From the NCBI RefSeq assembly GCF_013315695.1, contig NZ_CP054353.1: DNA of 64,000 nucleotides; one strand, written 5' to 3'. The DNA comes from Escherichia coli (GTDB lineage: Bacteria > Pseudomonadota > Gammaproteobacteria > Enterobacterales > Enterobacteriaceae). Below the pieces are notes generated by a model that saw nothing but the letters and a program-made list of their open reading frames with translations, was not told the DNA's origin and did not search any database. The position numbers and the translations under genes were made by a program. Shown piece after piece: positions 1 through 13,005 of the stretch (within the stretch, counting starts at the first letter, position 1; every line of letters starts with the position of its first letter).

Positions 1-1372
1 CCGGCACAACCGATCCGCCAAAAAGAGGCGTACCAATGTCGATATAGTCCCCCGCGCGGACAATCACTTCGTCAATGACTGCCAACGGGAGTTGTTGTAG
101 CTGTGGGCGCAACAACATGCCCAGAGCTTTACCAAAGTCCTGCCCGGCCACCACCAGCAGGGGATGCGGATTCGGAAAACGCGCGACGAAATCGACCAAC
201 GCGTTGATGACCGTCAGTACCGCGGCGTAACGCACAGGCAGCGAGGCGGGAAGCGCCAGCACGTACGCGTCAGTTTTAGGATCAAGATCCAGCTGAATCA
301 GCGCCTGTTGCCAGGCACTCACCAGATCCGTTTCATCAATCGGGATCGCCACCGGCAAATTGCGCAGCGGCAGTTGTACGCCCTCCAGCCAGATTGTGCT
401 GCCAGAGAGCGAAAGGGTATGAGCTCCCGCGCCAATCACCGTGGCGCGCACGGTTTGCGCCGGAAACTGCACGTTCATCTCACGCAGGCGCGGATGGTCA
501 TGCAGCGCCGTTGCCAGAAGCGGGCCAATATCGGCAAAACAGAACGGGTCGGCGGGCTGGTGGCGATAACATTCGCCAACGCCGCCAGAAAGCGTAATGA
601 TTTCGGGCGTAACACCTACGGGCAGCAAACCGGTTTGCATCAATGCCTGCGCGAGCGGCGAAAGCGTTCCGTCAATCACTTCGACAATCAGCTCTGCCAT
701 CCGCCGGGTAACCTGCACCAGCTGCGCGCCAGTCAGCGAACGGGCGTCGGTGCCTGCACCGAAGCACTCATCCACAATCATCTGCCCCGGTTTATGAGCG
801 TAAACCACGCGCCCCTGGCTGTCGGTTTCCAGCAGGCGACCGCCGACATTGAGGCAGGCGGTGCCGCTGATTTTTCCGGCATCGAACAGGGCGTAGTTCG
901 CGGTGCCACCGCCGATGTCGATATTCAGTACCCGACACAGCCGTTGTTCAGAAAGGGTTTGCGCCCCGGCACCGTGACCGGCGATCACGGATTCGAGATG
1001 CGGCCCGGCGCTGGCGACGACAAAATCGCCCAGCGACTGGGAGAGCGTCATCACCGCCGGGCGAGCGTTGCGGGTTTTCGCGCTTTCACCGGTGATAATG
1101 ATGGCACCAGAATCAACGCTTTCCGGCGCAATGCCCGCAGCCTGATATTGCTCGAGGATTAAGGTTTTCAGTTCCGCTTCTTTTAAACCACCCTGTTTAT
1201 CGACAGGGGTAAAGAACACCGGGCTTTGCCAGCTAATTTCGCGTTTGATGAATTCGTAGCGCGGCACCTGCGACACCGCCGCACGGTTAACCAGCTCCAG
1301 GTGGGAGAAGATCACCTGGGTGGTGGTGGTGCCGATATCGATACCGACGCTCAGTAGCTGGCGAGTGTTCAC
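1..1372 (-). CDS. eutA: Ethanolamine ammonia-lyase reactivase EutA, 3' end cut by window start
   Basis: Minus-strand translation from GTG at 1370-1372 gives MNTRQLLSVGIDIGTTT..., recognised as the EutA N-terminus; start overlaps the eutH stop (GTGA); the + strand ORF 164..1162 is its antisense artefact. Confidence 0.85.
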   Translation of the reverse strand, partial: MNTRQLLSVGIDIGTTTTQVIFSHLELVNRAAVSQVPRYEFIKREISWQSPVFFTPVDKQGGLKEAELKTLILEQYQAAGIAPESVDSGAIIITGESAKTRNARPAVMTLSQSLGDFVVASAGPHLESVIAGHGAGAQTLSEQRLCRVLNIDIGGGTANYALFDAGKISGTACLNVGGRLLETDSQGRVVYAHKPGQMIVDECFGAGTDARSLTGAQLVQVTRRMAELIVEVIDGTLSPLAQALMQTGLLPVGVTPEIITLSGGVGECYRHQPADPFCFADIGPLLATALHDHPRLREMNVQFPAQTVRATVIGAGAHTLSLSGSTIWLEGVQLPLRNLPVAIPIDETDLVSAWQQALIQLDLDPKTDAYVLALPASLPVRYAAVLTVINALVDFVARFPNPHPLLVVAGQDFGKALGMLLRPQLQQLPLAVIDEVIVRAGDYIDIGTPLFGGSVVP

Positions 1373-2595
1373 GATTGCGCCTCCGCTTCGGTTTTAGCCG
1401 TGGTCGCGTCTTCTTTTGGCACCAGCATCATCGCCACGCCAATCGCCGTTACGCCGCCGATCAACTTGCCGACAATCATCGGGAAGATCATGGCGTTCAT
1501 GTTGGCAGCGGCGAAGCCTAAGTGGTCGCCCAGGGCGAAAGCAGCGGAAACGGCGAAGGCACAGTTGATGACTTTGCCGCGGGTATCCATCTGCTTCATC
1601 ATGCCAAACATCGGGATGTTGTTGGCAAGCGTTGCCACCATGCCGGCTGCCGCGATGTTGTTCATATTCAGCACCTTACCGACGCTCATCAGCGGTTTTT
1701 CAAACCAGCGAGTCAGCAGCAGCACCATCGGATACGCCCCTAACAGAACGCAGGAGATCGAGCCGATAACTTCAATGGCGCGCATCACTTCACCGGGTTT
1801 ATCGCCAGGGGCCATAAAGATAGGATCAAGGCCCGGGATCAGTTCCCAGCCAAGGAGGAATTTCACTACCGCAGCGGCAAGACCGAGGGTGATCAATGCA
1901 ACGAGGAATTTGGCGAAGATCTGGAAGCCGTTGATCATTTTTTCCGGGATGAATTTCAGCCCCAGCGCCACCAGCACCGCAACGATAAGTACCGGGATCA
2001 TGTTCATCAGGATCAGCGCAAAGGTGAATTCCACTGGCTGACCGTTGATCTGCACACCGGAGTACATAGCCACCAGACCACCGGCAATACAGCCAATCGG
2101 AATGGTCACAATGCCCGCCAGCACGCCGAGCGCCAGATAACGACGGTCAGAAGGTTCGATAATGCCGAGCGCCACCGGAATGGAAAACACAATCGTTGGC
2201 CCCATCATCGACCCGAGAATTAATCCAGAGTATAGCCACGCTGCTACGTCGCCGCCCGCCAACTCTTTGGCGAGGAAGAAGCCGCCCATATCGCACGCCA
2301 GCAGTGTTCCGGCGAACATTGACGGGTTTGCGCCGAGCATTTCGTAAACCGGGATAATCACCGGTCCGAGTACGTGGGCCAGAACAGGTGCCAGCGCGGT
2401 CATACCAACCATCGCCAGGCCCAAAGCGCCCATTGCCATAAAGCCTTCTTCGAACTGACCGCCGGATCCTTCGATACTTTTACCGAACTTACCGAGGAAA
2501 CGAGCAGAACCGCCGAACTGCGACAGGATCCTGTCTACGGCAGCTATCAGCATAAAGAACATCATGATGTACATGATGATTTCGTTAATTCCCAT
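1369..2595 (-). CDS. eutH: Ethanolamine permease EutH (408 aa, polytopic membrane protein)
   Basis: 408-aa hydrophobic ORF, position in eut operon, recognised sequence. Confidence 0.9.
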   Translation of the reverse strand: MGINEIIMYIMMFFMLIAAVDRILSQFGGSARFLGKFGKSIEGSGGQFEEGFMAMGALGLAMVGMTALAPVLAHVLGPVIIPVYEMLGANPSMFAGTLLACDMGGFFLAKELAGGDVAAWLYSGLILGSMMGPTIVFSIPVALGIIEPSDRRYLALGVLAGIVTIPIGCIAGGLVAMYSGVQINGQPVEFTFALILMNMIPVLIVAVLVALGLKFIPEKMINGFQIFAKFLVALITLGLAAAVVKFLLGWELIPGLDPIFMAPGDKPGEVMRAIEVIGSISCVLLGAYPMVLLLTRWFEKPLMSVGKVLNMNNIAAAGMVATLANNIPMFGMMKQMDTRGKVINCAFAVSAAFALGDHLGFAAANMNAMIFPMIVGKLIGGVTAIGVAMMLVPKEDATTAKTEAEAQS

Positions 2596-2626
2596 CGCCT
2601 TTACTCCCTGTTAGTTGTTATTTATT

Positions 2627-2709
2627 GGCGGATGCGGCGTGAACGTCTTATCCGCCCTACATGTGCAATCCCGAAGGCCGGATAAGACGCGGCAAGCGTC
2701 GCATCCGGC
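2627..2709. repeat. Pair of REP (repetitive extragenic palindromic) units between eutH and eutG
   Basis: GGCGGATGCGGCGTGAACGTCTTATCCGCCCTAC and inverted GCCGGATAAGACGCGGCAAGCGTCGCATCCGGC, classic REP consensus. Confidence 0.8.
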
Positions 2710-2711
2710 AT

Positions 2712-3899
2712 TTATTGCGCCGCTGCGTACAGACCGACAATCTGCTCCAGGCTGGCGGTACGCGGGTTACTGCGCAGACAAACATCTTCCAGCGCGGCCT
2801 GCGCCCATGCACCGTAATGCGCAGATGTCGCACCAATATCGCCCAGTCGTTTACCAATCCCGACTTCCGCAATCAGCTCACTTACCGCGTTAATAGCGTC
2901 ACGATCGTCGGATTTTTTAGTTCTCAGCGCCCGGCCAATCTGACTAAACCGATCACGACAAACCATCCGGTTAAATTCCATCACCGTTGGCAGCAACATA
3001 GCGTTCGCCAGACCGTGCGGAATATGCAGCGCCGCCCCTGGCTGATGCGCCATCGCGTGGCACAACCCAAGTCCGGCACTGGAAAACGCCATTCCCGCCA
3101 TACATGAAGCCAGCAACATGCTCTCGCGGGCGGCAAGGTCGTGACCGTAGCCCACCGCTTTCGGCAGCGATTTGCCAATCATCGCAATGGCACCAATCGC
3201 CAGACTGTCGGTAAACGGTGTGGCGTTCAGCGCGCTGTACGCTTCAATGGCATGGGTTAACGCATCAATGCCAGTCATCGCCGTGACATGCGACGGCACA
3301 CCTTCGGTCAATGCGGCGTCGAGGATCGCCACATCCGGCATCAGCGAGGCATGGGCTAACACCTGTTTGCGCCCGCTTACCGCATCGATAATCACCGTCA
3401 CGTTAGTCGTTTCAGAGCCGGTTCCGGCGGTCGTTGGAATGGCAATCAACGGCAGGCGCGGTTGCAGAACGCTGGTTTCTGACATTTCTGCCAGCGTGCT
3501 ATCCGGGTTCGTCACCAGCAACGCCACGGCTTTCGCCGCATCCAGCACCGAGCCGCCGCCAAACGCGATCACCCCGTCACAACCTGATTCACGCAACTGC
3601 GCCACGGCTGCACACACGTCGGTGATGCATGGTTCGCCCACCGGACATGGCCAGAGCGTCATGGCGATACCTTTAACGGCCAGGCTACGCGTCAGCCCGG
3701 CGGTCATCCCGGTCTGATGCAAAAAGCTGTCTGCCATCACGAACAGATGTTTCAGCCCACGCGTTTGCGCTTGCTGCCCACAACTGCTCACCGCGCCCGG
3801 ACCGCAAAGCGTCACCGGTGGAACGCTAAATGTTTTTACCCGTTGCAGATTCAGGGTATCGAACGCCTGAAAGAGCGCGGTCTGCAATTCATTTTGCAT
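2712..3899 (-). CDS. eutG: Iron-containing alcohol dehydrogenase EutG
   Basis: 395-aa ORF with Fe-ADH family features, operon position. Confidence 0.9.
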   Translation of the reverse strand: MQNELQTALFQAFDTLNLQRVKTFSVPPVTLCGPGAVSSCGQQAQTRGLKHLFVMADSFLHQTGMTAGLTRSLAVKGIAMTLWPCPVGEPCITDVCAAVAQLRESGCDGVIAFGGGSVLDAAKAVALLVTNPDSTLAEMSETSVLQPRLPLIAIPTTAGTGSETTNVTVIIDAVSGRKQVLAHASLMPDVAILDAALTEGVPSHVTAMTGIDALTHAIEAYSALNATPFTDSLAIGAIAMIGKSLPKAVGYGHDLAARESMLLASCMAGMAFSSAGLGLCHAMAHQPGAALHIPHGLANAMLLPTVMEFNRMVCRDRFSQIGRALRTKKSDDRDAINAVSELIAEVGIGKRLGDIGATSAHYGAWAQAALEDVCLRSNPRTASLEQIVGLYAAAQ

Positions 3900-4725
3900 A
3901 TAGCCCCTCCGCTTTCTCTCGCCCGCTACTGGCGATCGCCAGCGGGGTCATAAACAAACTGTGCTGCGGTAAATGCACCTGTAACGCCGGGAATTGTTTG
4001 CGAAACAGTTCCGCCACGCCCGGTTGCATACAAGAGCCGCCCGCCAGCCATAAATCCGTAATGCCCTGCCCTTCAATATGCCGGGCGACGATGTCCGCCA
4101 TTTTTTCGTACACCGGTTTCACCGCGGGCCAAATCTCTTCACCGTGACCGCGCTTGTACTGCTCTGCCTCTTCCAGCGAAATACGACGATTTCCGGCGAG
4201 AGTCAGAGAGATGTGATGTCCGCCGGTCGCTTCATCCGCCGAGTACGTCACCTTGCCCTTTTTCACGATGGCAATACCAGTAGTGCCACCGCCGATATCC
4301 ACTACACCGGCGTTGTCCAGTTGCAGCAGATCCGCGACTGCGGTTGGCTCATCCAGTACATGGCTCACTTCCAGTCCGGCAGATTCCAGCACGTTGATGG
4401 AAATACGCGGGTCCGTACCTGGAGGAAAAGAGGTCGCCGCATGGCTAAAACGGCGACCGAATTGCTGCTCGAGGGTGTCGAGATGGCGACGAACAATGGT
4501 GACCGCACCGAAGAAATCCCAGACGATGCCGTCGCGGACCACATCGGCCCAGTCGAGGCATACCGCCACCGGCAGACCGTCGCGGTCGACAACCATCGAC
4601 ACCACATCGCAGGTGCCCAGATCCACCCCCAGCCACAGCGGAGATTCCGTCGCGGCGGGCGTCTGGTTACACAGCGTTGCCGCCGTTTGCAGACGTGGGG
4701 TGAGCCATTGTTCATCGTGCGCCAT
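3889..4725 (-). CDS. eutJ: EutJ, actin/Hsp70-like ATPase fold chaperone-like protein
   Basis: 278-aa ORF with LGVDLGT sugar-kinase/Hsp70-type N-terminal motif; operon position. Confidence 0.88.
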   Translation of the reverse strand: MAHDEQWLTPRLQTAATLCNQTPAATESPLWLGVDLGTCDVVSMVVDRDGLPVAVCLDWADVVRDGIVWDFFGAVTIVRRHLDTLEQQFGRRFSHAATSFPPGTDPRISINVLESAGLEVSHVLDEPTAVADLLQLDNAGVVDIGGGTTGIAIVKKGKVTYSADEATGGHHISLTLAGNRRISLEEAEQYKRGHGEEIWPAVKPVYEKMADIVARHIEGQGITDLWLAGGSCMQPGVAELFRKQFPALQVHLPQHSLFMTPLAIASSGREKAEGLYAK

Positions 4726-4735
4726 CGGTTACTCC

Positions 4736-6139
4736 TTAAACAATGCGAAACGCATCGACTAATACACAGCGACGCAGACGGACAAACGTCCGCGCGCTGG
4801 TTACCCCTTCACCGGTTGGCGTGGTGATGGTCATGGTGGTCCAGCCTTCCCCGCCCAGCCCCAGCCCGGCAATGCACGGTCCGTTCTTAACGAAAATGCT
4901 GGTATCAATGGCATTCGCCATCTGGTTCATGTTCTCGATATTGCGCGAGTGCATTGCCGCCGTGTGGTGGCAACCGCCTTCCAGTTTCACCGCCAGCGCA
5001 ATGGCATCCGCCACGTTGGCGACGCGCACGACGGGCAGCACCGGCATCATCAGTTCAGTCACAGCAAACGGATGTTCTGCGGTGGTTTCTACAAACAGCA
5101 GTCGCGTTTGTTCCGGAACTTTAAGGCCGATTGCCGCCGCGATTTTCGCCGCATCGCGACCAACCCAGTCACGGCTGACGGTGCCTTTTCCGCGCTCGTC
5201 GATATTTTTCAGCAACACCGGTTGCAGCTGCTGCGCCTGCTCTGCGGTCAGTTTCACCGCGTGCTGGCCTTCCATCAGACGCATCAGTTCATCGGCTACG
5301 CTATCCACAACAATCAGTACCTTTTCGTCGGCACAAATGATGTTGTTATCGAAAGACGCGCCTTTGACGATGGACTGAGCAGCACGGGCGAGGTCGGCGG
5401 TTTCATCCACCACTACCGGCGGGTTGCCAGCGCCTGCGGCAATCAGACGTTTATTGGTGTGTTTACGCGCCGCTTCTACTACCGCTTCGCCGCCGGTCAC
5501 CACCAGCAGGCCGATGCCCGGAAACTTGAACAAACGTTGAGCGGTTTCGATATCCGGATTTGCCACAGTAACCAGTAAGTTTTCCGGCCCGCCTGCGGCA
5601 ACAATCGCCTGGTTGAGCAGCGTGATCGCCCGCTGGGAGACTTTTTTCGCCGCCGGATGCGGGGCAAAAATGACGCTGTTGCCCGCGGCAATCAGGCTGA
5701 TGGCGTTGTTAATTACGGTTGCCGCCGGGTTAGTGGAAGGCGTCACCGAAGCCACTACGCCCCAGGGCGCGTTTTCAATTAAAGTCAGGCCGTTGTCACC
5801 GGTCAGCACTTGCGGAGAGAGGCACTCAACGCCTGGTGTGCCGCGCGCCTGAGCGACGTTTTTGGCAAATTTATCTTCAACGCGCCCCATGCCGGTTTCA
5901 CTGACGGCAAGTTCCGCTAAATCTCTGGCGTGTTTTTCGCCTGCTTCACGAATGGCAGCAATGGCTAACTGGCGCATTGCCACGCTTTTTAACCCTTGCT
6001 GGGCGACTTTGGCTGCCGCAACGGCGTCATCCAGGGACGCGAAAACGCCCATCTCATGAACGGCGGCGGGCGGCGTGTCACTGCTTTGCATTTTCAGCAG
6101 TACCGCTTTCACCACCTGTTCAATATCCTGTTGATTCAT
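4736..6139 (-). CDS. eutE: Acetaldehyde dehydrogenase (CoA-acylating) EutE
   Basis: 467-aa aldehyde dehydrogenase family ORF; operon position. Confidence 0.9.
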   Translation of the reverse strand: MNQQDIEQVVKAVLLKMQSSDTPPAAVHEMGVFASLDDAVAAAKVAQQGLKSVAMRQLAIAAIREAGEKHARDLAELAVSETGMGRVEDKFAKNVAQARGTPGVECLSPQVLTGDNGLTLIENAPWGVVASVTPSTNPAATVINNAISLIAAGNSVIFAPHPAAKKVSQRAITLLNQAIVAAGGPENLLVTVANPDIETAQRLFKFPGIGLLVVTGGEAVVEAARKHTNKRLIAAGAGNPPVVVDETADLARAAQSIVKGASFDNNIICADEKVLIVVDSVADELMRLMEGQHAVKLTAEQAQQLQPVLLKNIDERGKGTVSRDWVGRDAAKIAAAIGLKVPEQTRLLFVETTAEHPFAVTELMMPVLPVVRVANVADAIALAVKLEGGCHHTAAMHSRNIENMNQMANAIDTSIFVKNGPCIAGLGLGGEGWTTMTITTPTGEGVTSARTFVRLRRCVLVDAFRIV

Positions 6140-6150
6140 GATGTTCTGCC

Positions 6151-6438
6151 TTATTTGTGGAAAATGACCTGACCGCCAGACACCACCTCATCGACGATGC
6201 CAATCACGCACAGATCGACCGGTGACGTTTCGCTTTTATGCGCCTGGCGGGCGGAACTGCCACTCACCAGCAACACCCACTCCCCGGTTCCCGCGCCAAT
6301 ATTGTCGATGGCGACGGCGCATTGCCCGTCAGGATTACCTTGTGGATCAATCATTTCCACCATCAGCAATTTGTCATGCGCCAGTCCGTGATGGCGTACG
6401 GTACAAACAATTTGTCCAGTGACGACTGCCAGTTTCAT
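6151..6438 (-). CDS. eutN: Microcompartment vertex protein EutN
   Basis: 95-aa ORF MKLAVVTGQIVCTVRH..., EutN/CcmL family. Confidence 0.9.
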   Translation of the reverse strand: MKLAVVTGQIVCTVRHHGLAHDKLLMVEMIDPQGNPDGQCAVAIDNIGAGTGEWVLLVSGSSARQAHKSETSPVDLCVIGIVDEVVSGGQVIFHK

Positions 6439-6544
6439 ACCCGCCTCCGTGGCGTATTTCAGGTAAAAGCTCCCCCTACCCTCCGCAGAAGGTAAAATGA
6501 TAAAGGAGAGAGCGTGACGCCCGAATCGACGTCACACAGGGTGA

Positions 6545-6838
6545 TTACAGGTTGCTGCTATCGCCTTTCAGGCCGATCGGGAACACTTCTTCCAGGTCGC
6601 CGTGCGGACGCGGGATAACGTGTACAGATACCAGCTCGCCGATACGCTGTGCCGCTGCGGCACCTGCATCGGTCGCGGCTTTACAGGCTGCAACATCACC
6701 ACGAACCATGGCAGTACACAGGCCGCCGCCAATCTGCTTAACACCAACCAGCTTGACGCGCGCAGCTTTAACCATCGCGTCAGAAGCCTCAATCAGTGCA
6801 ACCAGGCCCCGGGTTTCGATCATTCCTAATGCTTCCAT
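6545..6838 (-). CDS. eutM: Microcompartment shell protein EutM (BMC domain)
   Basis: 97-aa product [22 protein letters not shown]... starting at internal ATG 6836-6838; the track ORF is extended upstream. Confidence 0.9.
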
Positions 6839-6876
6839 TGTGCTTTCCTCTTTATCAGGGTCCAGAACGGGACCGT

Positions 6877-7893
6877 TCATTCAACCAGTGTTTGTAAACT
6901 GCTTTCGCGGTTCACTTCTGTCTGACGCGGCACAGCTGCCACCAGCGCCAGCTCGATAATTTCCTGCACGCTACAACCACGAGAGAGATCGTGCATCGGC
7001 GCGGCAAGTCCTTGTATCAATGGCCCGACGGCACGATATCCGCCGAGTCGTTGTGCGATTTTGTAGCCAATATTTCCGGCTTCCAGCGACGGAAAAACCA
7101 TCACATTGGCCTTGCCCTGTAGCGGGCTGGCAGGCGCTTTTTGCGCCGCCACTTCCGGCACGAAGGCGGCGTCAAACTGCAACTCGCCATCGACTACCAG
7201 CTTTGGTGCGCGCTCACGGACGATTTCTGTCGCCTGCTGGACGTTGGCAACGCAGGGGTGACGGGCACTACCATTGCTGGAAAACGACAGCATCGCCACG
7301 CGCGGTTCTTCTCCGGTGATGGCCTGCCAGGTTTCGGCGCTGGCAAGCGCGATATCCGCCAACTGCGCCGCCGTCGGCTGTGGCACCACGCTGCAATCGG
7401 CAAAACCCAACGCCGGACCGCTGTACTGTGGCAGCATCAGGAAAATGGATGAGAGCGTTTTACAGCCTGGCTGCAAGCCGATAATGCGTAATCCGGCACG
7501 CAGCACATTCGCCGTGGAAGAGAGGTTGCCCGCGATACAGACATCCGCTTTACCGGCGCTGACCATTGCTGCGGCGAACATCAGCGGGTCGGTAAGTTTT
7601 TCCAGCGCATCCGGCGGCGTTTTTTCGCCCGCGCGGGCCAGCCAGCGATGAGCAAATTCTTCCCGCATTGCGAGGTTGCCATGCGGATCAATCACCTGTA
7701 GCCCGTCCATCGCCACGCCATGACTGAGCGCAAACTGACGAAGTTCAAACGGATTGGCGACCAGAATGGGCGTTGCCAGACCTTGTTGATGTAAATATTG
7801 CGCAGCTTTCAGCACACGTTGATCTAACGCATCCGGAAAAACTACTCTGGCGGGCGCTCGCAACGCCAGTTCACGACAACGTTCAATAATCAT
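6877..7893 (-). CDS. eutD: Phosphotransacetylase EutD
   Basis: 338-aa Pta-like ORF; operon position. Confidence 0.9.
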
Positions 7894-8693
7894 TGCGTTT
7901 CCCCCAGTCGTTGTTGGATCTGCTTCACCGTTAGCGGCTGCTTCGTTACGCTCAGGATCATCATCACGTAGACCGTGCTGGAAAGGCGGTTCAGCGCCTG
8001 CAAAATGTCCGGGCGTAATACTTCAAAGCTGCGGGTGATAAAGACCTGCGCCGCTACGGTTTCGGTTTCCCGCACTTTGGTGCGTAGCAGATTTAGCAAC
8101 GCCGCATCGCGCCCGTGGCTGGCTTCCGGCACCAGATGATCGTGGTCGAGATAACGCAGCGGCTGGTGAGAAAGCCGATGCAGATCTTCGTCAGAAAGCC
8201 CGACAATCGCTTGGCAGGCCAGCGGTTCCCCCAGCGCATCGGCACGCATAATGTTGCCAAGACGCGAACGGATATCCGCCAGCCACGGCTGCCACGGTTC
8301 CGCCAGTTCAATTTGCAGCCACACTGCCAGCGCAATGGTGCTGTCGAGAACAGCGCGAAAAGCCAGGCGCGGATCGCTTTTGGCAACCATTTTTTCCGCC
8401 GACAGGTGAGTCAGCGTGTCCGGCTTTTTCGCCACCGGCTGGCGGCACAGTTCGCAGCACGCCTGCGGATGTTCATCACTACTGGTCAGCCCGTGAACGG
8501 GCTGCGGCTGCTGCTGTTCATCGTCAACAAACAGGCGGCCCTGCTCGTCAATAAACTTGATGCGCAGATGGCGGCTTTCCAGTAACTCCCGGGCAGAGGG
8601 CGTCAGGCGACTGTCCGCAGGGAGATGGATCTCTGCGCCTTCGCTAAGCGTATGATTCGCTCTTAGCCATGCTTCGGTGATGAAATCTTTCAT
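7890..8693 (-). CDS. eutT: Corrinoid adenosyltransferase EutT
   Basis: 267-aa ORF; 4-nt overlap with eutD and eutQ typical of translational coupling. Confidence 0.88.
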
Positions 8694-9391
8694 AGGGATT
8701 GCCAGTTAGCCGGCCAGGCGACATACAGGAATTTCACACTGGATGTCGTACCAAATTCGATGCTGGAGCCTTTCGGGATAAACATCACATCGCCTGCTTT
8801 GGCGATCATGGTTTCGCCTTCGTGGCGAACGTGCAGTTCCCCTTCCAGTACCATATCGATTTCGTCATAGTTGAGGGTCCACGGGAAGAAGGCGTTCTCC
8901 CACTGCATAAAACCGGCGGCCATGCTGCTGCCGTCGTCTCCGGTGACCAGATCCGTTAATCCGACGCAGTGTGGCTGTGCGCCGTCGAAACGACCAAACT
9001 TGACGCTGCTGCCATCAATCACTTTGATGCCGCCTTTGCCGGTCACCGATTTGAAGCTCGGCTGCATTGCACCCTGCTCCAGTGACTGTTTTTCCTTCAT
9101 CACTTTTTCCATCAGCTGCGCGACCAGGCTTTCGGTAAACTGGCCTTCCGGTAGCTGGGCGATGATGGTTTCGCGGATGCGCTGGCTTTCGGTTTTATCG
9201 GCTGGCACGCTGGCGGGAACGGACGTCGTTACCGCAGTCGATTCATCACATTCGGTGATGGTAAAACCCAACAGATCAGCCACTTCACGAGCTTCCGGGG
9301 TAATAATGCTGGCGCGCAGAACCACGGACATTGCCAGTTCGCCGCGCGCGTGTGCTTCACGAATATCATTCGCTGTGATGAGTTTTTTCAC
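8690..9391 (-). CDS. eutQ: EutQ (cupin-fold protein of the eut operon)
   Basis: 233-aa ORF, operon position, recognised sequence. Confidence 0.88.
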   Translation of the reverse strand: MKKLITANDIREAHARGELAMSVVLRASIITPEAREVADLLGFTITECDESTAVTTSVPASVPADKTESQRIRETIIAQLPEGQFTESLVAQLMEKVMKEKQSLEQGAMQPSFKSVTGKGGIKVIDGSSVKFGRFDGAQPHCVGLTDLVTGDDGSSMAAGFMQWENAFFPWTLNYDEIDMVLEGELHVRHEGETMIAKAGDVMFIPKGSSIEFGTTSSVKFLYVAWPANWQSL

Positions 9392-9845
9392 CTGCTTCCT
9401 CCTGTTTGGTGAGAGATGCCAGATAATCCACCAGTTGCTGCACGCTTTGCGGGTCGTGGCTGTTTAGCTCGAAAATCGGCTCTTCGAAGCCCGTCTCAAG
9501 CAATAACTTTCGCGTTGCGGCGACGTCAGCATCTGGCATGTCCGTTTTACTGATGACGGCGATTTGCCGTTTGCTGACGCCAATATCCAGCAACCCGGCA
9601 GGCAACCGACTTTCCGGGTCATTCGCGCCGTGGACATAGATCAGCATGTCCACATCCTGTAGCGTGGTAATTAAGGCGTGATACCAGCGGGGATGGCTAA
9701 AATATTCACCCGGCGTATCAATATCGCCCTTATCATTAAATTCCACGGCCTGTGTTTTTCTTGCGAGGGTATAATTCCCCTGCAACGCATTAAATAACGT
9801 TGTTTTTCCTGCCCCGACGGTACCCACAAACGCAATTCGTTTCAT
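9366..9845 (-). CDS. eutP: EutP (P-loop NTPase of the eut operon)
   Basis: 159-aa ORF with Walker A GTVGAGKTT; overlaps eutQ by 26 nt. Confidence 0.88.
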   Translation of the reverse strand: MKRIAFVGTVGAGKTTLFNALQGNYTLARKTQAVEFNDKGDIDTPGEYFSHPRWYHALITTLQDVDMLIYVHGANDPESRLPAGLLDIGVSKRQIAVISKTDMPDADVAATRKLLLETGFEEPIFELNSHDPQSVQQLVDYLASLTKQEEAGEKTHHSE

Positions 9846-9874
9846 GAATGCCTCGTATTAACTTTTGGTCATTT

Positions 9875-9883
9875 CACAAAGCG
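9875..9883. repeat. Left copy of 9-bp target-site duplication CACAAAGCG flanking IS1
   Basis: Identical 9-mer immediately outside both IS1 termini. Confidence 0.9.
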
Positions 9884-9898
9884 GGTAATGACTCCAAC

Positions 9899-10402
9899 TT
9901 ATTGATAGTGTTTTATGTTCAGATAATGCCCGATGACTTTGTCATGCAGCTCCACCGATTTTGAGAACGACAGCGACTTCCGTCCCAGCCGTGCCAGGTG
10001 CTGCCTCAGATTCAGGTTATGCCGCTCAATTCGCTGCGTATATCGCTTGCTGATTACGTGCAGCTTTCCCTTCAGGCGGGATTCATACAGCGGCCAGCCA
10101 TCCGTCATCCATATCACCACGTCAAAGGGTGACAGCAGGCTCATAAGACGCCCCAGCGTCGCCATAGTGCGTTCACCGAATACGTGCGCAACAACCGTCT
10201 TCCGGAGCCTGTCATACGCGTAAAACAGCCAGCGCTGGCGCGATTTAGCCCCGACATAGCCCCACTGTTCGTCCATTTCCGCGCAGACGATGACGTCACT
10301 GCCCGGCTGTATGCGCGAGGTTACCGACTGCGGCCTGAGTTTTTTAAGTGACGTAAAATCGTGTTGAGGCCAACGCCCATAATGCGGGCTGTTGCCCGGC
10401 AT
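9899..10402 (-). CDS. insB: IS1 transposase InsB reading frame (made as InsAB' fusion by -1 frameshift)
   Basis: 167-aa ORF ...[65 protein letters not shown]; A6C slippery run (minus strand, plus-strand T-run 10340-10345) in the insA/insB overlap. Confidence 0.93.
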
Positions 10403-10596
10403 CCAACGCCATTCATGGCCATATCAATGATTTTCTGGTGCGTACCGGGTTGAGAAGCGGTGTAAGTGAACTGCAGTTGCCATGTTTTACGGCAGTGAGA
10501 GCAGAGATAGCGCTGATGTCCGGCGGTGCTTTTGCCGTTACGCACCACCCCGTCAGTAGCTGAACAGGAGGGACAGCTGATAGAAACAGAAGCCAC
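10321..10596 (-). CDS. insA: IS1 InsA (transposition inhibitor / DNA-binding protein)
   Basis: 91-aa [46 protein letters not shown]... Confidence 0.95.
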
Positions 10597-10646
10597 TGGA
10601 GCACCTCAAAAACACCATCATACACTAAATCAGTAAGTTGGCAGCA

Positions 10647-10970
10647 TCACCCACAAAGCGTATAATTTAATAAGCGTCCTAAACCACTGACGGTTTGTGA
10701 TAACGCTTCTTCTACTGCGCCCACCGAGCCATAAATCACCAGCGCGCCGCTAAAACGGTCGAGAAAACCGATATGCACATCGGCGGCTTTCAACGCTAAA
10801 TCACCGGCGATCATCGCCGTTTCTCCGGGAGTTAGCGTCATAATGCCAATTGCGCCCGCATCCGGAACGCCGATTTTCTTCGCCAGTTCCTCGCCGGGAT
10901 GCGCGATGAGATGCGCCAGTGTGACCTGTTTACCGGGCACAAATTCCTGAATGATGCGTTCTTTATCCAT
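10647..10970 (-). CDS. eutS: Microcompartment shell protein EutS, 3' end altered by IS1 (ends ...NYTLCG; stop lies inside IS1)
   Basis: Starts [15 protein letters not shown]...; reading frame runs into the IS1 right end; deleting IS1 plus one TSD copy restores ...LCEMTKS followed by TAA (rc of 9858-9860). Confidence 0.85.
10652..10660. repeat. Right copy of 9-bp target-site duplication CACAAAGCG flanking IS1
   Basis: Identical to 9875-9883. Confidence 0.9.
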
Positions 10971-11335
10971 GAGTCGCCGCCTGTGAAAAACTTTCGTGTA
11001 TCGTGACAATTTTTCGTCAGAGTAAATAACAAAATTCGGCAAGCGCGTTTAAAAGGTGAGGTAGATCACGAACAATGGGGAAAATACTTTATGCAAAGAA
11101 AATCACATACATCACATGAATACAAACAGGAGTCGATAAGTTTTATTTATCATATGTTACCCACCCCATTTTTAATGGTTCTTCGCATAACCCTATGTAG
11201 CATTTATAATAATTATCAGAATACATATCCCATGAACTGTTGTATTCTGAAAATATTATTATACTCACCCCATTTAAGGTACAACATAAACGATGAGTTT
11301 ATTCAGGGCATAAAAGAAATGGATGGATACCTGTA

Positions 11336-12406
11336 ATGAAAATTCACTACCTTGTCACCACTCTCGAAACGGGAGGCGCTGAATTTGCGATTCCTGATAT
11401 TGTGACTACTCTACAAGATCTTGGTCATGAGGTGAAAATTTATGTATGTGAACCCCGAGATATGGGCGCGGCACCGCGTCTGAAAGCGGCCGGTTTATCC
11501 TGGTGTTTATTATCAAATCGGCGGCGTTCTGTTCCAGTGCTTGTCGGTGCTTATCTGGCAAAAATCATTTACGACAAACCCGATCTCATCTGGACTTCGT
11601 TAAGTTGGGGGACGCGTATTGGACAATGGGGCGGCCGACTTATGGGCATTCCGGTTATCAGTTTTAAACATAGCGCCAGCGTAAAACCAGCAACCTGGCG
11701 TATGCGCAGCATGTCACGTTTATGGATTGGCGATTCTGCAACCGTAACTCAATACCTGCATGAAACCATGCGGATCCCGAAGCAACAAGTGATGTGCTGG
11801 CCTTTTTTTCAGGCTAATCCGCAAGCTGCTCAAGCGAAAAAGTGGGACGGGGTATCAGTTTTACAATTAGGCACCGTTGGTCGCCTGCATGAAGTTAAAA
11901 ATTACGCAGGATTAATTACTGCACTCGCTTCGTTTGTCGATAAAAACCCGCAATTGCGCTCGCGAATCCGACTAACCCTTCTCGGTGAGGGAGCCGAACA
12001 AGAGGTTTTGAAAAAGACCATAACACAACACGCCATGGAGGATGTAGTTTGTTTAGCGGGGTTTTCTGCGGATATCGAAAATTTTCTTGCCGGATTACAT
12101 GTCTATATCCAAACTTCCCGCTACGAAGGGATGTGCCTCGCCGCACACGAAGCCATGAATGCAGGGCTTGCGATCATTACGCCCCCTGTAGGTGAACTTA
12201 AAGAATCGGTAATTGATGGTCATACCGGCTATATACTTAATGGCGAACTAACTCCAGCACTGGAGGAAGTACTTAACCGTATTTTCAATGAACCCACAGA
12301 ATTACAACACTATGGGCAAAATGCGCGTCAGTATGTATTACAGAAATTCAGCCATGAAAATTTTGTCCAGTCTGCAATCAACATTGTTAATAGACTTATT
12401 CACTGA
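11336..12406 (+). CDS. Uncharacterised GT4-family (GT-B fold, Glycos_transf_1-like) glycosyltransferase, 356 aa, in an AT-rich segment
   Basis: N-terminal LETGGAEF...LGHEV motif and C-terminal E-X7-E motif (YEGMCLAAHEAMNAGLAIITPPVGELKESVIDGHTGYIL); about 42% GC over the first 120 nt by manual count; no counterpart in K-12 gene order as recalled. Confidence 0.8.
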   Translation: MKIHYLVTTLETGGAEFAIPDIVTTLQDLGHEVKIYVCEPRDMGAAPRLKAAGLSWCLLSNRRRSVPVLVGAYLAKIIYDKPDLIWTSLSWGTRIGQWGGRLMGIPVISFKHSASVKPATWRMRSMSRLWIGDSATVTQYLHETMRIPKQQVMCWPFFQANPQAAQAKKWDGVSVLQLGTVGRLHEVKNYAGLITALASFVDKNPQLRSRIRLTLLGEGAEQEVLKKTITQHAMEDVVCLAGFSADIENFLAGLHVYIQTSRYEGMCLAAHEAMNAGLAIITPPVGELKESVIDGHTGYILNGELTPALEEVLNRIFNEPTELQHYGQNARQYVLQKFSHENFVQSAINIVNRLIH

Positions 12407-12410
12407 ATAA

Positions 12411-12445
12411 GGCAGTAAAAAGGCATTTTTTGGTACTGCCTTTTC
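12411..12445 (+). terminator. Putative intrinsic terminator of the glycosyltransferase gene
   Basis: GGCAGTAAAAA / TTTTTGGTACTGCC stem followed by TTTT, 5 nt after the stop. Confidence 0.5.
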
Positions 12446-12949
12446 ACCGAATACTATGGTTATCGTACTTGTCGTGGCGATGGGAAAAGTCGTTACAGTT
12501 TTCATTCCCTTGCATAGCCGTGACGCCCCCTTTTCACACACAAAGAAAATGGTGGATGTTTTATACTCCTCCACCACCAAAGGCAGTCAAGATGGATAAG
12601 TTAATGCTCGCCCATGCCCCCAATTTATGGGCCATGGAAAAACGTCTTGCAAACAGCTGTGTACGGGAATAATAGCAGTGCGGGTATGAGCAAGACATTA
12701 TTTTATCATGACGGGCAAAATTGCAGCCGGACCTAGGGCGGTGCATTGCAGATGCTGAAACTGGACCCGCTATGTTTATTATCTCCAGAATTTAATGCGT
12801 CTGGAAGTACCTACAACTGCTGCGCCTTTTATTGATGGCATGCATACGCTTTCTGGTGTTGGCGACGTTACATTCATGATGCCTGGCTACAACTTAAGGG
12901 CTCGCCTCAGCAATTCTGAGTGGATGTACAGCGGCGTATACAGAAGTGG

Positions 12950-12988
12950 GTCAGCAAAACCGCTTACCCCGAATAAACAGGGTAAGCG
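12950..12988 (-). terminator. Putative intrinsic terminator of maeB
   Basis: Perfect 9-bp stem CGCTTACCC/GGGTAAGCG just 3' of the maeB stop, followed on the minus strand by GUUUUG. Confidence 0.5.
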
Positions 12989-13005
12989 TGATTTAAAGGA
13001 ATGAA

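Follow-up and report, generated by a model that had tools for sequence, protein, structure and literature searches.

We have found a complete IS1 element inside eutS, the first gene of the eut operon for ethanolamine catabolism, in a 64,000-nucleotide stretch of Escherichia coli DNA (contig NZ_CP054353.1; hereafter the window) that matches with 100% identity the chromosome (NZ_LR898874.1) of MSB1_4I, an E. coli isolate from a human rectal swab in Australia. The insertion adds one more case to a familiar type of event, and it probably causes a strong polar knock-down of the genes from eutP through eutR, which would be uncoupled from their inducible promoter with loss of the autoinduction by EutR. 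The arrangement has the structure of a polar insertion, as the element lies between the promoter and the distal genes and stops translation early, and the RNA beyond this stop is untranslated over a long distance.

The IS1 element in eutS and its history in close relatives

The sequence-only reading had placed an IS1 within positions 9845-11040, between eutS and eutP and in the orientation of the eut genes. A complete element with a perfect 9-bp target duplication (CACAAAGCG) does lie in that interval, and both insA and insB' are on the minus strand, but it sits inside codon 107 of eutS and not between the two genes (Table 1). It belongs to the IS1 family by its length, its imperfect terminal inverted repeats (~23 bp; GGTGATGCTGCCAACTTACTGAT / GGTAATGACTCCAACTTATTGAT; the 24-nt arms are 79% complementary), the insA/insB' frameshift arrangement with an intact A6C motif (AAAAAAC, 10345-10339), the target duplication and the empty site in a relative. 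According to the RefSeq annotation, the element encodes an IS1A-family transposase with 'programmed frameshift' (coding sequence WP_103215986.1). This is the only IS1 copy in the window, and the MSB1_4I chromosome contains at least 40 IS1 matches.

IS1 entered between the first and second bases of eutS codon 107, counting from the ATG at 10970, and the truncated protein consists of 106 native residues, a glycine and then an IS1-borne TGA (10649-10647). It ends in ...LCG* (107 amino acids), compared with the native ...LCEMTKS* (111 amino acids; WP_000356956.1 in the related isolate AF10), so that EMTKS has been swapped for G. Residues 1-106 are identical to those of the crystallised E. coli EutS (3I96), and the protein itself is probably little changed. 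On the eutP side of the element, the final 26 nt of the native gene (9858-9883) remain.

Apart from this insertion, the operon of MSB1_4I is well preserved. It comprises 17 genes in the canonical order eutSPQTDMNEJGHABCLKR (EUT1 type), flanked by maeB, talA and tktB; the other 16 genes are annotated as intact, there are no pseudogene flags in the operon, and the prophage CPZ-55 is absent from it as annotated. Beyond the window start, the MSB1_4I chromosome continues with the rest of eutA and then eutB, eutC, eutL, eutK and eutR. The start/stop overlaps from which a single transcription unit had been proposed were all confirmed (26 nt for eutP/Q, 4 for eutQ/T, 4 for eutT/D, 11 for eutJ/G and 4 for eutH/A), and the proposal that this unit is read from upstream of eutS agrees with the literature, which places a promoter activated by EutR, ethanolamine and B12 immediately upstream of this gene and assigns to eutR an additional weak constitutive promoter of its own (PMC4643982). 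Because the EutR-dependent promoter is upstream of eutS, IS1 splits eutP through eutR from it. Similarity to other E. coli extends only to 108-121 bp upstream of the eutS ATG, where a lower-GC islet begins (11091-13005; GC 0.44 against 0.53-0.57 around it) that extends toward maeB and holds a family-4 glycosyltransferase (GT4) gene on the plus strand (11336-12406) and small open reading frames; a 94.6%-identical version is found in other lineages, and K-12-like strains do not have it.

Table 1. Features of the eutS/eutP region, in window coordinates.
Feature	Position	Strand	Remarks
eutQ, eutT, eutD (annotated pta), eutM, eutN, eutE, eutJ, eutG, eutH, 5' part of eutA	1-9391	minus	Intact, tightly packed or overlapping, downstream of IS1
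eutP	9366-9845	minus	First gene past the insertion; GAGG ribosome-binding site and ATG (9845) intact
Stranded native eutS 3' remnant	9858-9874	minus	Includes TAA stop 9860-9858; reaches the eutP-side duplication
Target-site duplication, eutP-side copy	9875-9883		Perfect 9-bp direct repeat
Complete IS1 (IS1A type)	9884-10651	minus	768 bp, same direction as eut; 100% self-match, 99-99.9% identity to IS1 copies elsewhere
IS1 right inverted repeat (IRR)	9884-9906	minus	eutP ATG 38 nt further on
insB' frame	9899-10402	minus	167 amino acids; made only as InsAB' after -1 frameshift at AAAAAAC
insA	10321-10596	minus	Repressor and N-terminal transposase part; 91 amino acids, GTG start
IS1's own promoter-like site	10644-10617	minus	-35 within IRL; consensus scan
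IS1 left inverted repeat (IRL)	10629-10651	minus	Holds -35 of IS1's own promoter; donates TGA 10649-10647 closing eutS
Predicted IS1/target hybrid promoter	10638-10666	plus	-35 TTGGCA in IRL, 17-nt spacer, -10 TATAAT in native eutS; 11/12
eutS'	10647-10970	minus	107 codons and stop; annotated WP_001571747.1
Target-site duplication, eutS-side copy	10652-10660		Perfect 9-bp direct repeat
Retained native DNA upstream of eutS	10971-11090	minus	Presumed site of the EutR-dependent main promoter (position presumed); alignment ends

The lineage of MSB1_4I is represented by only five complete genomes (MSB1_4I, AF3, AF10, OZ546925 and MS 21-1), which are ~100% identical over 25 kb, the next-best genome being 98.5% identical. 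The empty site is present in AF10, OZ546925 and MS 21-1, and AF10 differs from the reconstructed pre-insertion sequence by 1 mismatch in 1,940 bp, with one copy of the target sequence and no IS1. The closest relative of MSB1_4I is AF3, a blood isolate from the UK (NZ_OZ547117.1, IS1 at 3201-3968 of its locus), at ~2 mismatches in 24.8 kb as estimated from bit scores, and its eutP-side IS1 junction is 100% identical to that of MSB1_4I. The insertion is therefore genuine and no assembly artefact, because AF10 has the exact empty site and the independent assembly of AF3 shares the junction. This shared junction also indicates that the insertion is older than the split between MSB1_4I and AF3, and that one branch later lost eutS and the region just upstream. 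In AF3 the left end of IS1 adjoins window position 11184, the 532 bp at 10652-11183 (eutS' and the presumed promoter region) are missing and only one copy of the target duplication is retained; we read this loss as an IS1-adjacent deletion, and the disappearance of the promoter region would fit a locus that was already dispensable. The transposition of IS1A into the AT-rich 3' end of eutS is itself recent. The lineage is rich in IS1, with at least 39-40 matches per chromosome in MSB1_4I, AF3, AF10 and OZ546925 and 19 in MS 21-1, the median genome with any match having ~11.

Expected polarity on eutP through eutR

From this anatomy we infer the following course of events. Polymerase starting at the promoter dependent on EutR, ethanolamine and B12 would transcribe eutS' and enter IS1 via its left end, IRL being the entry side for transcription that comes from the eut promoter. 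Ribosomes would halt at the TGA supplied by IS1 and only the short insA would be translated after it, and the insB' segment (~440 nt) would be free of ribosomes on more than 98% of the transcripts before eutP is reached; frameshifting into insB' has been reported on ~1.6% of transcripts (PMC12903888). Rho would then load on the naked insB' RNA and terminate transcription ahead of eutP. As a result, the induction of eutP-eutR would be strongly lowered. Because eutR comes last in the operon, EutR would also cease to boost its own production, leaving the basal amount made from the promoter of eutR itself, and the cells would be expected to grow poorly on ethanolamine or to fail to grow on it. Our scan for intrinsic terminator-like hairpins detected none on the eut strand within IS1, the sole IS1 hairpin being on the plus strand, so that any polarity has to be factor-dependent. 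IS1 is reportedly strongly polar in either orientation, according to the studies of Jordan, Saedler and Starlinger in 1968, of Fiandt, Szybalski and Malamy in 1972 and of Hubner, Iida and Arber in 1987. Two further cases speak for polarity, the IS1A of plasmid pAA2 and the prophage that interrupts eut in K-12 BW25113, both of which are compared below.

A different outcome, in which the insertion is phenotypically mild because read-through or the promoter of IS1 itself keeps ethanolamine use near normal and the change of five residues in EutS is cosmetic, seems unlikely to us, although several observations favour it. There is no intrinsic terminator on the transcribed strand of the element, the ribosome-binding site of eutP and all the downstream genes are intact, residues 1-106 of EutS are identical to the crystallised protein, and leaky, uninduced expression of plasmid-borne eut genes already restored growth on ethanolamine as nitrogen source (PMC11334477). 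Against it stand the reported strong polarity of the element in both orientations and the ~440 nt that would remain untranslated. Furthermore, the promoter of IS1 is weak and repressed by InsA (PMC12903888), and since the chromosome has 40 or more IS1 matches, InsA would be abundant, the IS1 promoter repressed and IRL occupied. The later deletion of the promoter region in the sister isolate AF3 also argues against a mild effect.

The polar knock-down itself has to face some of the same observations. The low expression that sufficed from the plasmid could suffice here too, and IS1 polarity is known to be strong yet not absolute. A C-rich, G-poor stretch of the transcript (C/G up to 2.1, at 10572-10390) is in favour of polarity but falls within the translated insA, and the deletion in AF3 could mirror a general dispensability of eut in this niche instead of a prior inactivation. 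It also favours polarity that we found only one weak promoter-like match (9/12) on the eut strand over the 9.9 kb downstream of IS1, below the expectation from shuffled sequences, but activator-dependent or weak internal promoters may escape a consensus scan. These reservations weaken the expectation of a strong polar knock-down, which we nevertheless regard as probable.

An outward or hybrid promoter of IS1 feeding eutP, as the sequence-only reading had considered, does not find support at the right end. In its strongest form this would mean that IS1 rewires the operon, a right-end promoter driving eutP-eutR constitutively with no need for ethanolamine or B12. Hybrid promoters between IS1 ends and a flanking -10 are known (Prentki et al. 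1986, as cited in PMC12095673), and one is predicted at this very insertion. However, this site belongs to the left end of the element, lies on the plus strand and points away from eutP; the consensus scan reports no promoter-like site running from IRR toward eutP, where the -35-like TTGGAG is followed at a spacing of 16-18 nt by an AAATGA-type sequence; and the hot-spot insertions described below occur in both orientations relative to eut (~7 same, ~5 opposite), which gives no hint that a directional promoter has been selected. We therefore consider a constitutive rewiring scarcely credible.

The predicted hybrid promoter is directed toward the GT4 gene, across eutS in the antisense sense, and a -35 at this distance is missing from the empty site. 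Because it is on the plus strand, antisense to eutS, it would be unable to feed eutP and, if active, would interfere further with the transcription of eutS and from its promoter. It has to be considered whether the main effect of the insertion is on this side, the antisense transcript silencing eutS and/or activating GT4, which lies ~670 nt downstream on the same strand. The match is good and its -35 is brought in by IS1; however, it is a match to the consensus, the -35 is inside the InsA-binding end of IS1 and probably occupied, GT4 has a promoter-like site of its own (11182-11210), and the other hot-spot insertions differ in flanks and orientations. This makes a main effect on the antisense side very doubtful, and the polar knock-down of eutP-eutR is preferred.

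A recurrent IS1 target at the eutS/eutP junction

IS1 with its 200-bp flanks served, in both IS1 orientations, as the query against 5,426 complete E. coli genomes, and IS1 was found in or near eutS in 24 genomes with the element oriented as here and in 11 with it inverted; 26 loci were mapped. At least 12 independent events, in unrelated strains, fall in a patch of 93 bp that stretches from the start codon of eutP into the last third of eutS (window 9843-9883 and 10661-10712; Table 2), and three sites have received IS1 more than once, either in opposite orientations or as distinct IS1 variants. Among the other mapped events, ~10 are in the intergenic region between eutS and maeB, that is, the eutS promoter region, one is in the body of eutP and one in eutQ, and the first 260 bp (5') of eutS have none. 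By the binomial distribution, 12 out of 24 events would fall into 93 of 1,441 bp with P ~7e-9. An empty-site probe of 400 bp over the patch was interrupted or truncated in 45 of 5,408 genomes, compared with 0 of 5,409 for an adjacent 400-bp probe in eutQ/eutP. Roughly 20-25 of the genomes with an interrupted probe lie outside the mapped set, and the one sampled, 19AR0656, again carries IS1, with an adjacent deletion running to maeB. Follow-up deletions or rearrangements are seen in AF3, JX21CE35/FACU 2024, 19AR0656 and ET665. In WS4437A-1 (NZ_CP035822.1, locus 1217-3211), two inverted IS1 copies bracket eutS and the eutS segment is flipped relative to eutP-eutR.

Table 2. Independent IS1 insertions mapped in the 93-bp patch (orientation relative to eut).
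Genome(s)	Reference position	Orientation	Remarks
CUPF06	1167	same	
WS4437A-1	1184	not assigned	Second IS1 upstream of eutS, inversion between
GF124.3	1187	same	
MSB1_4I, AF3	1200	same	
GN4143	1208	same	94% IS1 variant
JX21CE35, FACU 2024	1209	opposite	eutS deleted in JX21CE35; FACU 2024 grouped by identical search match
ET665	~1219	same	eutP side rearranged
STO_Bone1B	1221	same	
EC052	1221	opposite	Duplication as in STO_Bone1B
U12A-U15A	1231	opposite	U15A mapped; U12A-U14A by identical search matches
F467	1252	same	
S6aCHROMc, TUM9803	1252	opposite	Duplication as in F467

The clustering points mainly to a target preference of IS1, because selection for the loss of eut alone would spread insertions over the whole operon. 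IS1 has long been known to prefer AT-rich targets, and the composition of the patch matches this preference, with an AT content of 62% (66% in the intergenic region) compared with 45-47% in the neighbouring coding DNA. The repeated follow-up deletions are compatible with selection acting on the persistence of such insertions. A more far-reaching proposal would be that this patch, together with the promoter region of eutS, is a species-wide entry point for IS1 at which unrelated lineages repeatedly silence the front of the operon and then delete it by IS1-adjacent deletion while keeping basal eutR, a convergent and possibly adaptive loss of catabolism with sensing retained, as opposed to neutral insertions into AT-rich DNA; we regard this as distinctly improbable.

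Several other candidates were tried and rejected. A regional excess of IS1 was not found, since the 35 genomes observed compare with ~32 expected at uniform IS1 density over an effective target of ~2.5 kb, a size that follows from the search joining pieces up to ~1.1 kb apart; the hot-spot signal is therefore the local clustering together with the contrast between the adjacent probes. An orientation bias, considered as a sign of promoter selection, was rejected as both orientations were present after the search with inverted IS1, and no match to the IHF consensus WATCAANNNNTTR with up to one mismatch was found in reference positions 1100-1850 as an explanation for the hot spot. An AT-rich control segment in the eutG-eutH region (window 2380-2779) was discarded: coverage was below 80% in 319 of 5,422 genomes, and strain-variable REP-like palindromes in the gap make it uninformative on IS insertion. 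These palindromic repeats occupy window 2596-2711, the units presumably being present or absent by strain.

Another intergenic gap of the operon, between eutM and eutN, contains a hairpin with a 10-bp stem and a U/C-rich tail just past eutM (window 6537-6512, minus strand), which may act as an attenuator or stabilise the mRNA. Such a role would fit the abundance of EutM, roughly 100-fold higher than that of EutN (PMC11334477).

Significance and comparison with known systems

Ethanolamine is a nutrient in the gut and the urinary tract and a signal linked to colonisation and virulence in E. coli. A strain with the full set of eut genes may nevertheless be Eut-negative in function because of an insertion of 768 bp, which annotation pipelines pass over, and eutS is still called intact here. 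Our literature search returned no description of IS1 in eutS or the eut operon or of a hot spot at this junction, which is previously unremarked, and nothing relevant on strain MSB1_4I. With at least 12 independent events in 93 bp, and several lineages then losing eutS and the promoter, the site offers a simple genomic marker to predict the eut phenotype in strain collections. Moreover, MSB1_4I, AF3 and AF10 constitute a natural near-isogenic set (insertion, insertion with deletion and empty site) for the costs and benefits of the microcompartment. What this work adds is thus the corrected position inside eutS, the near-isogenic series, the predicted antisense hybrid promoter and the hot spot.

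The closest precedents are the classical IS1 polar mutants of gal and lac (Jordan, Saedler, Starlinger 1968; Fiandt, Szybalski, Malamy 1972), in which, as in eutS, a 768-bp IS1 with a 9-bp duplication lies in an early gene of the operon and the distal genes are intact. The mechanism expected in common is factor-dependent termination in the untranslated IS1 RNA, the polarity being deduced here from the sequence. Those were laboratory mutants, whereas MSB1_4I is a natural isolate from clinical carriage; furthermore, the operon affected here is a microcompartment operon of 17 genes with the activator gene in the last position, and polarity would also break the autoinduction.

A mobile element also splits eut in K-12 MG1655/BW25113, where the prophage CPZ-55, of roughly 6.8 kb, lies between eutA and eutB. 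This interruption leaves BW25113 eut-minus, as which it is listed, and an intact operon has been rebuilt by removing the prophage, described as 'downstream of eutA' (PMC11334477). In that case eutS-eutA stay attached to the promoter, whereas the 0.77-kb IS1 at the front of the operon detaches 16 genes.

The plasmid pAA2 of enteroaggregative E. coli 042 carries an IS1A downstream of aggR, and this element provides the first two Rho-dependent terminators that are predicted there; removal of IS1A or of its IRL increases the level of the aggR transcript upstream (PMC8595720). The element is of the same type as ours and upstream transcription likewise enters via IRL; however, it acts as a 3' regulatory region of a single gene, while the IS1 of eut is within an operon and upstream of genes that need the transcript. 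Finally, the predicted promoter at 10638-10666 resembles the IS1 hybrid promoters of Prentki, Teter, Chandler and Galas (1986) in joining a -35 from the IS1 end at 17 nt to a resident -10, but it faces away from the eut structural genes.

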